From: Escherichia coli O127:H6 str. E2348/69
GTDB taxonomy: Bacteria; Pseudomonadota; Gammaproteobacteria; Enterobacterales; Enterobacteriaceae
Length of the DNA: 64,000 bases
Strand: one strand, 5' to 3'
Assembly (NCBI RefSeq): GCF_000026545.1
Contig: NC_011601.1
How positions within the stretch are numbered: the stretch's first letter is position 1; each line of letters starts with the position of its first letter. A program made the translations under genes and the position numbers. The notes under the pieces were generated by a model that was not told where the DNA came from, made no database searches, and saw only the letters and a program-made list of their open reading frames with translations. Below, piece by piece: positions 61,020-61,749 of this stretch.

Positions 61020-61386
61020 TCATTTTCTCTCGATCAAAATAAGTTGCATTAATGTTTCTATAAGAAACAAATAATATTGTTATTAAGAAATAAAATACGT
61101 TGCAATATGATCGAAATCTACGCCGCCATTTGTGTGATGTAAAGCGCATTTTTGTCTGTTGTAAGCGTAAATATCACCAATAAGAAACAAAAAATGTTTC
61201 TTTTATAAATTAAAAAGGAAAACATTTCGTGCTCTTTCAATGTAAAAAAGAGTAAAGACTTGTTTTGATAAGCGAAATAAATTCTGTTTCTGGACTAAAC
61301 GTGAACCGGTTCCTGATGTGTGCTAAAATGCGTTTCTTTGATAAATCTCAATTTTTAAGAGGTTTACGCCAGGCAGGAACATTTAA

Positions 61387-61749
61387 ATGAATGAATTTGA
61401 GAAGATTTTTAATGAAATGAATCTGGACCGGGCATTGCTACCGATCCTTTTTCGTTCGAACCGGTCAACAGTGTGGAAGTATTTAAGCGGCGATAGTACG
61501 GCTCCTGCCTCAGCTATGTCACTGATTATGCTGTTGCAGTTAATCCAGAAACGAAACCCCGATCTATTAGCCGAATGGTTAACGCTTTCTGATTTCACCA
61601 TTCCGCCAGAAGTTTACCTGGACCAGCCTGATTACTGGAAAGGGTGGGTGTATACCCAACACAAGGTCAATAAAAACGTCCTGGAATATCTAAAAAAACA
61701 TTATCCGGATGAAGACCAAAAAAGTATGGGTAAAGGCCGGGAAGAGTAA
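61387..61749 (+). CDS. Hypothetical protein, possible HTH-containing regulator, divergent from the adhesin-like gene
   Basis: 120-aa ORF; the segment LDRALLPILFRSNRSTVWKYLSGD loosely resembles an XRE-type HTH; preceded by a 367-bp AT-rich intergenic region. Confidence 0.45.
   Translation: MNEFEKIFNEMNLDRALLPILFRSNRSTVWKYLSGDSTAPASAMSLIMLLQLIQKRNPDLLAEWLTLSDFTIPPEVYLDQPDYWKGWVYTQHKVNKNVLEYLKKHYPDEDQKSMGKGREE

Follow-up and report, generated by a model that had tools for sequence, protein, structure and literature searches.

A small regulator of the XRE type encoded divergently from an adhesin operon is a familiar arrangement. The trimeric autotransporters UpaG and EhaG are reportedly repressed by H-NS, as Totsika et al. 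are said to have found in 2012, and we know of no dedicated divergent gene for a helix-turn-helix (HTH) protein at their loci. Here, we analysed a locus of Escherichia coli O127:H6 str. E2348/69, contained in a stretch of 64,000 nucleotides of contig NC_011601.1 (the window), in which an open reading frame (ORF) of 120 amino acids (aa) and an adhesin-type gene of 338 aa are transcribed away from each other across an intergenic region (IGR):

60003-61019, minus strand: 338-aa gene with a YadA-like anchor, its ATG bordering the IGR
61020-61386, 367 bp: divergent spacer (IGR) between the two ATGs
61387-61749, plus strand: 120-aa ORF (RefSeq: hypothetical protein), its ATG bordering the IGR

As with UpaG and EhaG, the acquired adhesin gene has an AT-rich upstream region and thermoregulated expression; here, however, a divergent HTH gene is dedicated to the adhesin locus. 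Our preferred reading, to which we give a probability of roughly 0.55, is that the 120-aa protein would act as a local regulator through GTTTC sites in the IGR. What is new is a protein family with an unmatched C-terminal domain, dedicated to a small trimeric-autotransporter/lipoprotein cassette.

In comparison with Aca2 (and Aca1/Aca10), which are anti-CRISPR-associated autoregulators of the XRE type, the 120-aa protein has no significant sequence similarity, and only its HTH half superposes (full-length root-mean-square deviation 7.7-8.9 Å, TM score 0.41); the acr gene and the phage context are missing here, and the putative target operon is divergent and encodes an adhesin. Membership in an Aca2 or DUF1870-like group was rejected, as there was no DUF1870 match, full-length superposition was poor and the context was that of an adhesin operon. 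In comparison with the HTH domains of the antitoxins MqsA and HigA2, the protein starts directly with the HTH, so that only MqsA residues 76-129 align (hhalign probability 14%), and both the zinc-ribbon N-domain and a toxin partner are absent. An MqsA-type antitoxin was rejected because the N-terminal zinc domain is missing and no toxin-like ORF is adjacent, the gene being flanked by the IGR and by repetitive extragenic palindromic (REP) elements. The C proteins of restriction-modification systems, which like other small XRE regulators bind tandem palindromes within a control region, are co-transcribed with their targets, whereas here the presumed target is divergent, and the control region is 367 bp long with at least four candidate sites.

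The 120-aa protein and its family

Between E. coli and the orthologues of four other genera, the proportion of non-synonymous differences in the 120-aa gene was 0.13-0.26 against a saturated synonymous proportion of 0.72-0.80, which indicates strong purifying selection. Its O157:H7 counterpart, z0640, had 43.5 reads per kilobase per million (RPKM) in RNA-seq (PMC5826968). The ORF is therefore a real, constrained gene. Its family is tiny: we found 24 representatives at E <= 0.001 among 1.84 billion proteins and 21 clusters at 90% identity, and a search with a narrower family alignment detected it in four of 100,044 species genomes (two Escherichia, Pseudocitrobacter and Symbiopectobacterium).

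The AlphaFold2 (AF2) model computed from a 23-sequence alignment that included distant members had a pLDDT of 90.7 and a pTM of 0.78, whereas ten close sequences alone gave an unusable model (pLDDT 60.7); it was the distant relatives that raised the confidence. In the model, residues 1-70 form a helical bundle with an HTH (helices 15-22 and 26-34), and such a bundle with the HTH at helices 2 and 3 puts the predicted fold in the XRE/Cro-C1 (lambda-repressor-like) superfamily. The C-terminal ~45 residues were predicted as helical and had no convincing structural match; by analogy with Aca2, this domain may mediate dimerisation.

The only Pfam match of the E. coli protein was to the HTH half of MqsA_antitoxin (E 0.082, 13.5 bits against a cut-off of 30), and single-sequence and profile queries of NCBIfam, PHROGs and PDB sequences returned nothing meaningful. 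When the family was scanned member by member, MqsA_antitoxin was found in five members (best E 2.4e-5), Xre-like-HTH in four (3.7e-5), HTH_3 in three and HTH_26 in two, with E values overall from 2e-5 to 3e-4. A preliminary description of this DNA, made from the letters alone, had noted that the N-terminus loosely resembles an HTH and had staked its proposal on the presence of such a fold; the likeness is real, as indicated by the confident model and the HTH-family matches of the relatives, and an HTH domain is indeed predicted. We consider it very likely, on the basis of the model, that the protein is an HTH DNA-binding protein. The family is new to annotation, having neither a Pfam nor an NCBIfam model, and the literature holds only the statement that there is no motility phenotype.

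Pairing with the adhesin operon

Genomic context was recovered for thirteen family members. In all readable loci of members with at least ~32% identity, the HTH gene was divergent from a YadA_anchor gene, which was followed by a homologous lipoprotein gene. The spacer was ~290-380 bp long across the orthologous loci, the lipoprotein homologue was 46-49% identical in distant cassettes, and a gene for a ~65-aa protein usually came next. The cassette occupies at least four chromosomal sites, namely cueR|ybbJ in Escherichia, qmcA|fetA and qmcA|cnoX in Pseudocitrobacter-like genomes and ribC|MFS (a major facilitator superfamily gene) in another group, and it lies elsewhere in loci L013 and L015. 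Since the HTH gene, which is monocistronic in E2348/69, stays back-to-back with the same operon despite repeated relocation, this is good evidence of functional coupling. At one locus, it faces the lipoprotein and small-protein pair with the adhesin absent.

The ORF had been put forward in the preliminary description as a candidate local regulator. The divergent pairing, kept across genera and sites, makes it a strong candidate. In the only genetic work published on the gene (PMC5826968), neither motility nor fliC was affected by the z0640 deletion.

The nearest structural and sequence neighbours of the 120-aa protein are antitoxin and anti-CRISPR-associated HTH proteins, and P0037, at 24% identity the remotest member examined, belongs to a mobile element rich in recombinases, where the adhesin-cassette partners are absent. 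Both observations would suit an XRE protein of the antitoxin or phage type, unrelated to the adhesin. We judge this to be very improbable, as neither a toxin nor an acr gene is adjacent to the monocistronic gene, which is followed by REP elements, the zinc-ribbon domain of MqsA is missing, and the divergent pairing with adhesin and lipoprotein is kept across genera and insertion sites.

The lipoprotein homologues (2441-2854 in L016 and 3228-3626 in L031) persist even without the adhesin. Neither the 140-aa lipoprotein nor the ~65-aa protein had a match in Pfam or the PDB. SadB and TpgA, helpers of export or biogenesis, are analogues for the lipoprotein, which by this analogy could have a similar role.

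Half-sites in the intergenic region

The very AT-rich divergent region of 367 bp reported in the preliminary description proved to be exact in its limits (61020-61386): the IGR has 30.2% GC against 51.6% for the window, and it is the most AT-rich part and the sole 367-bp stretch below 33% GC in the 64 kb. The same description had pointed to a repeated 11-mer, TAAGAAACAAA, which is present at 61061 and 61181, with an exact 12-mer, ATAAGAAACAAA, at 61060 and 61180. Taken alone, the exact 12-nt repeat was borderline (P ~0.05 in dinucleotide shuffles), and it was rejected as a stand-alone signal in favour of a family of GTTTC/GAAAC half-sites, of which the 11-mer is only the visible tip. The E. 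coli IGR contains six such half-sites against 1.0 expected (~6-fold, 0/500 shuffles), and close orthologous IGRs contain 5-8 each against ~1 (0/500 shuffles in most). An unbiased k-mer screen of eleven spacers returned AGAAAC as the top 6-mer (42 occurrences against 2.8 expected, z 17.8), and five of the nine AGAAACA heptamers of the whole window fall within the IGR. The GTTTC motif is thus conserved and statistically enriched. Its arrangements are the following:

61053-61069: inverted pair TGTTTCT-ATA-AGAAACA, downstream of the predicted adhesin start, in leader DNA
61064-61081: degenerate palindrome copy
61183-61201: central palindrome AGAAAC-N7-GTTTCT, best candidate operator
61274-61291: degenerate palindrome GAAAT-N7-GTTTCT, ~45-60 bp upstream of the predicted start of the small gene

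The left arm of the central palindrome is the 11-mer mentioned above. Its half-sites are invariant in all eight Escherichia alleles while the sequence between them varies, the spacer being 7 nt long in seven alleles and 6 nt in NMBU-W10C18; invariant half-sites around a variable spacer are the classic signature of an operator for a dimeric protein. The GTTTC at IGR position 34-37 was kept in nine of the eleven orthologous IGRs scanned, and L014 and the two most distant loci are without it. In the copy at 61274-61291, the GTTT core is invariant across genera and the full TGTTTCT within Escherichia. We also noticed that in L009, L013 and L004 the adhesin leader has its GTTTC sites as direct repeats with a period of exactly 22 bp (two helical turns), ~34, 56 and 78 from the ATG. 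Leader half-sites are thus inverted in E. coli and direct in other genera, the same half-site occurring in differing operator architectures.

Diverged cassettes carry related or replaced motifs, namely GGTTTCT in L015, GCAGAAAG in L016, AGAACA/AGGAACA palindromes in L017 and L018, and AGCTA-N-TAGCT in L031, and their HTH proteins differ, especially in the recognition helix. Such co-variation of the motif with the local HTH protein favours a locally encoded binder over a conserved global factor, and the repeated GTTTC motif is probably the binding site of the 120-aa protein.

The composition of the IGR may also be explained by generic xenogeneic silencing, in which the AT-rich spacer is merely bound by H-NS and relieved at 37 °C, the 120-aa protein has a minor or anti-silencing role, and the A/T-rich repeats are by-products or H-NS nucleation sites. 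The GC content is the lowest in the window (30% against 52%), only 26% of the complete E. coli genomes (1413/5426) carry the cassette, which lies at differing sites in other genera, as is expected of an acquired locus silenced by H-NS, and the adhesin gene was reported to be expressed most at 37 °C and little at 30 °C. However, discrete G/C-containing blocks and the GTTTC half-sites remain invariant while their A/T-rich surroundings drift and synonymous sites are saturated, and invariant blocks amid drifting A/T-rich DNA point to sequence-specific recognition. The H-NS high-affinity motif TCGATAAATT was not enriched in the IGR (two hits, each with two mismatches), and silencing does not explain the constant HTH gene beside the operon. 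We therefore regard it as an unlikely explanation on its own, and prefer recognition of the half-sites by the 120-aa protein.

The two GATC sites noted in the preliminary description exist, at 61032 and 61109, slightly off the positions 61029 and 61108 given there, but they are neither enriched (two against 0.8 expected, P = 0.2) nor conserved: the equivalent positions are empty in the orthologous IGRs of other genera, and nine of eleven IGRs are without any GATC. They can be taken as chance occurrences, and a Dam/GATC phase-variation switch (Ag43/OxyR-like or pap-like) was rejected on the same counts. A scan of the IGR against Rfam gave no match and no RNA element in the spacer.

Promoters and other conserved boxes

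We aligned the IGR across eight genera or alleles and, separately, among eight Escherichia alleles. Since synonymous sites are saturated between genera, the invariant noncoding positions of the IGR must be constrained; the promoter-like blocks in it are conserved. The elements located in this way were:

61115-61143, minus strand: candidate sigma-70 promoter of the adhesin gene (-35 TTTACA at 61143-61138, 17-nt spacer, -10 TAGATT at 61120-61115)
61242-61256, plus strand: CpxR-like box GTAAAAAAGAGTAAA, a perfect GTAAA-N5-GTAAA, between the two promoters
61321-61329, plus strand: candidate extended -10 element TGCTAAAAT of the 120-aa gene, TG-TA--AT invariant across genera
61331-61351, plus strand: CGTTTCT half-site right after the -10, then palindrome TTGA-N6-TCAA (61338-61351), overlapping the predicted start of the small gene

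The adhesin promoter block, TACGCC-N8-TGTGATGTAAAGC, was also picked by a consensus promoter scan. Its -35 is invariant and its -10 is kept as TAnnTT in the eight genera or alleles, the entire block is invariant within Escherichia, and transcription is predicted to start near 61108. To read the TGTGATGTAAAGC block as an extended -10 on the plus strand was rejected as weaker than the minus-strand -35 reading. We also noticed that TGTGA-N6-GCGCA at 61133-61148, conserved across genera with a GCACG variant outside E. coli, fits TGTGA-N6-GCRCR and resembles a CRP site; its 6-bp spacer is exactly the adhesin -35 hexamer, a position that is not standard for activation. For the 120-aa gene, a start near 61336 is predicted, and TGGTAAAAT stands at the place equivalent to its -10 in the distant loci L015-L017. 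The palindrome TTGA-N6-TCAA is unique in the window and was found at the equivalent position in L004, L007, L009, L014, L015 and L016; it was not at that place in L017 or in the close orthologues L011 and L013.

None of 300 shuffles of the E. coli IGR reached a perfect CpxR-like match. With at most one mismatch, the box is present in 8 of 12 orthologous IGRs scored, in six of them at IGR positions 222-235. The locus would in sequence qualify for the CpxR regulon, an assignment made from the published consensus only. The sole other perfect GTAAA-N5-GTAAA of the window is at 55591-55605 (plus strand), in the divergent copA-glsA intergenic region.

The repeated motif may alternatively belong to a global factor of the OmpR or CpxR type. 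OmpR sites at ompC and ompF contain TGAAAC, which resembles the half-site. The perfect CpxR-consensus box is conserved in position across genera, and TTGA-N6-TCAA, unique in the window, keeps its position even in distant cassettes. In published data, the adhesin gene is expressed less with added NaCl or KCl, and its expression collapses once the bacteria have attached to cells; attachment is a cue that reportedly works via NlpE-Cpx in enterohaemorrhagic E. coli, in work to which a passage of PMC9387321 refers. On the other hand, the half-sites are arranged in an inverted 12-bp geometry whose spacer length is conserved, as for an HTH dimer and not as in tandem 10-bp OmpR half-sites, and TTGA-N6-TCAA is absent from two close orthologues. 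Moreover, where the local HTH protein has diverged, the motif has changed along with it, whereas the specificity of OmpR and CpxR is, as far as is known, conserved in Enterobacterales. A global owner of the motif appears to us quite improbable, and we retain the 120-aa protein as the more plausible binder.

Proposed mechanism

On the basis of these arrangements, we propose that the 120-aa protein would bind, probably as a dimer, to the array of GTTTC(T) half-sites, using those at 61183-61201, 61053-61069 and 61274-61291 and the half-site on its own predicted start at 61331-37. Binding to the last of these would bring about negative autoregulation of the extended -10 promoter at 61321-29. The adhesin promoter (TTTACA-N17-TAGATT, 61143-61115) would be controlled, and most likely repressed, from flanking or following sites, the remaining sites being located ~85 bp ahead of the predicted adhesin start and 35-50 bp beyond it; such an arrangement suggests repression, by occlusion, roadblock or looping, more readily than activation. 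Global inputs may be layered on top, through the CpxR-like box and possibly through H-NS on the AT-rich DNA. We infer in this way the binding of the motif by the protein, the sign of regulation and the start sites. That the protein is specifically a repressor is a tentative proposal, to which we give somewhat less than even odds; it is favoured by the half-site on the predicted start of the small gene itself, by the sites downstream of the adhesin promoter and by the published deletion and complementation results for z0640 (PMC5826968).

Several points weigh against this mechanism. The putative link between protein and DNA was drawn from sequence, and the E. coli protein itself has no significant Pfam, NCBIfam or PDB match, its HTH being called from a predicted structure. 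GAAAC also occurs in sites of the OmpR type, and another factor could be the owner of the motif, with published expression falling at high osmolarity. The palindrome TTGA-N6-TCAA competes as an autoregulatory operator, though it is missing from two close orthologues. The orientation and spacing of the half-sites are not uniform (22-bp direct repeats elsewhere, inverted pairs in E. coli). Finally, the divergent transcripts rise and fall together in RNA-seq, so that co-activation fits equally with shared repression (PMC5826968).

The adhesin and the published GmrA

The product of the 338-aa gene begins with MKTVNVALLALIISATSSPFVLA, including a signal peptide, and has coiled-coil-type matches over residues 100-270 and the Pfam YadA_anchor domain at residues 279-338 (E 7e-12); its C-terminus also matches the solved membrane anchors of AtaA (E 4e-7) and Hia (E 6e-6). 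With a signal peptide, a coiled-coil stalk and a YadA-like anchor, it is by its sequence features a type Vc trimeric autotransporter. In a comparison with the Sakai genome, it is listed as a 'Saa-like protein' adhesin (PMC2323221).

In an earlier study, Yang et al. (2018, PMC5826968) described GmrA, encoded in the OI-29 island, as a transcription activator. We mapped the primers of that study to the present locus. The arm used to knock out z0640 lies immediately 5' of the 120-aa ORF. Translation of the gmrA cloning primer ATGAAAACTGTAAACGTAGCTTTA gives MKTVNVAL, with which the product of the 338-aa gene begins, and the gmrA arm specific to E2348/69 is identical to window positions 61020-61058 read as the reverse complement. 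Thus, 'GmrA' is the protein with the signal peptide, the coiled coil and the full-length YadA anchor. The study does not mention YadA or autotransporters (PMC5826968). The sole DNA-related match in our scan of the 338-aa protein was TMF_DNA_bd (E 0.21), a coiled-coil artefact. The sequence of GmrA is therefore in tension with a cytoplasmic DNA-binding role; the published experiments themselves are not refuted here.

The same study provides data on both genes (PMC5826968). Deletion of z0640 left motility and the expression of fliC and motA unchanged and did not copy the adhesin-gene phenotype, and a deletion of the whole island was complemented by the adhesin gene together with the full IGR, z0640 being absent; the phenotype-free deletion and this complementation argue against an essential activator role of the 120-aa protein. 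The RPKM values of z0638, gmrA and z0640 (20, 96 and 43) dropped to zero together on HeLa-attached bacteria. The gmrA mRNA peaked at 37 °C, neutral pH and low osmolarity and was low at 30 °C, and expression of the adhesin gene dropped with NaCl or KCl.

Insertion site and neighbouring elements

The window matches the chromosome of E2348/69 at 100% identity. In this strain, an insertion of ~3.3 kb splits cueR from ybbJ, which are direct neighbours in most E. coli, e.g. O104:H4. The locus corresponds to the O-island OI-29 of O157:H7 (z0638, z0639 and z0640). In addition to the two divergent genes, it comprises or borders on:

58114-58521: cueR, left flank of the insertion
58522-59201, minus strand: frameshifted 'hypothetical protein' pseudogene, within the insertion on the cueR side
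59324-59530, minus strand: 68-aa small-protein ORF, downstream operon partner of the adhesin gene
59527-59949, minus strand: 140-aa lipoprotein gene (z0638), downstream operon partner of the adhesin gene
61852-62310: ybbJ, right flank of the insertion

Of 5426 complete E. coli genomes, 1413 (26%) have the spacer with the 120-aa ORF, each in a single copy; O157:H7 EDL933 and UTI89 are among the carriers. The pseudogene is an extra of E2348/69: it is solitary between cueR and ybbJ in AVS0501 and missing from EDL933 and UTI89, which indicates that the cueR|ybbJ junction is a recurrent insertion spot for two independent elements.

Between the 120-aa ORF and ybbJ, at 61735-61886, there are palindromic elements of the REP or bacterial interspersed mosaic element (BIME) type (GCCGGATGCGGCG...), which have many matches per E. 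coli genome and gave sub-threshold Rfam hits to the REP-derived naRNA4; no intrinsic terminator was predicted 3' of the 120-aa ORF. In E. coli DS566-2 (L027) and in L028, the 120-aa protein is identical to the E2348/69 version, and the 730-bp spacer-plus-ORF query is only 92.7% identical, with the differences mostly in the adhesin-proximal half of the spacer. No adhesin coding sequence is annotated within 300 bp upstream in these two loci, and the pattern points to recombination or decay confined to the adhesin side.

Significance

About one in four complete E. coli genomes carries the cassette, with O157:H7, the enteropathogenic E. coli (EPEC) strain E2348/69, UTI89 and K1 strains among the carriers. 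In reviews, the adhesin-type gene figures as an activator of flagellar transcription, and the present analysis conflicts with this published assignment, in that GmrA, by sequence, is the adhesin itself. As the family of the divergent HTH protein has no Pfam or NCBIfam model, its description would fill a gap in annotation too.
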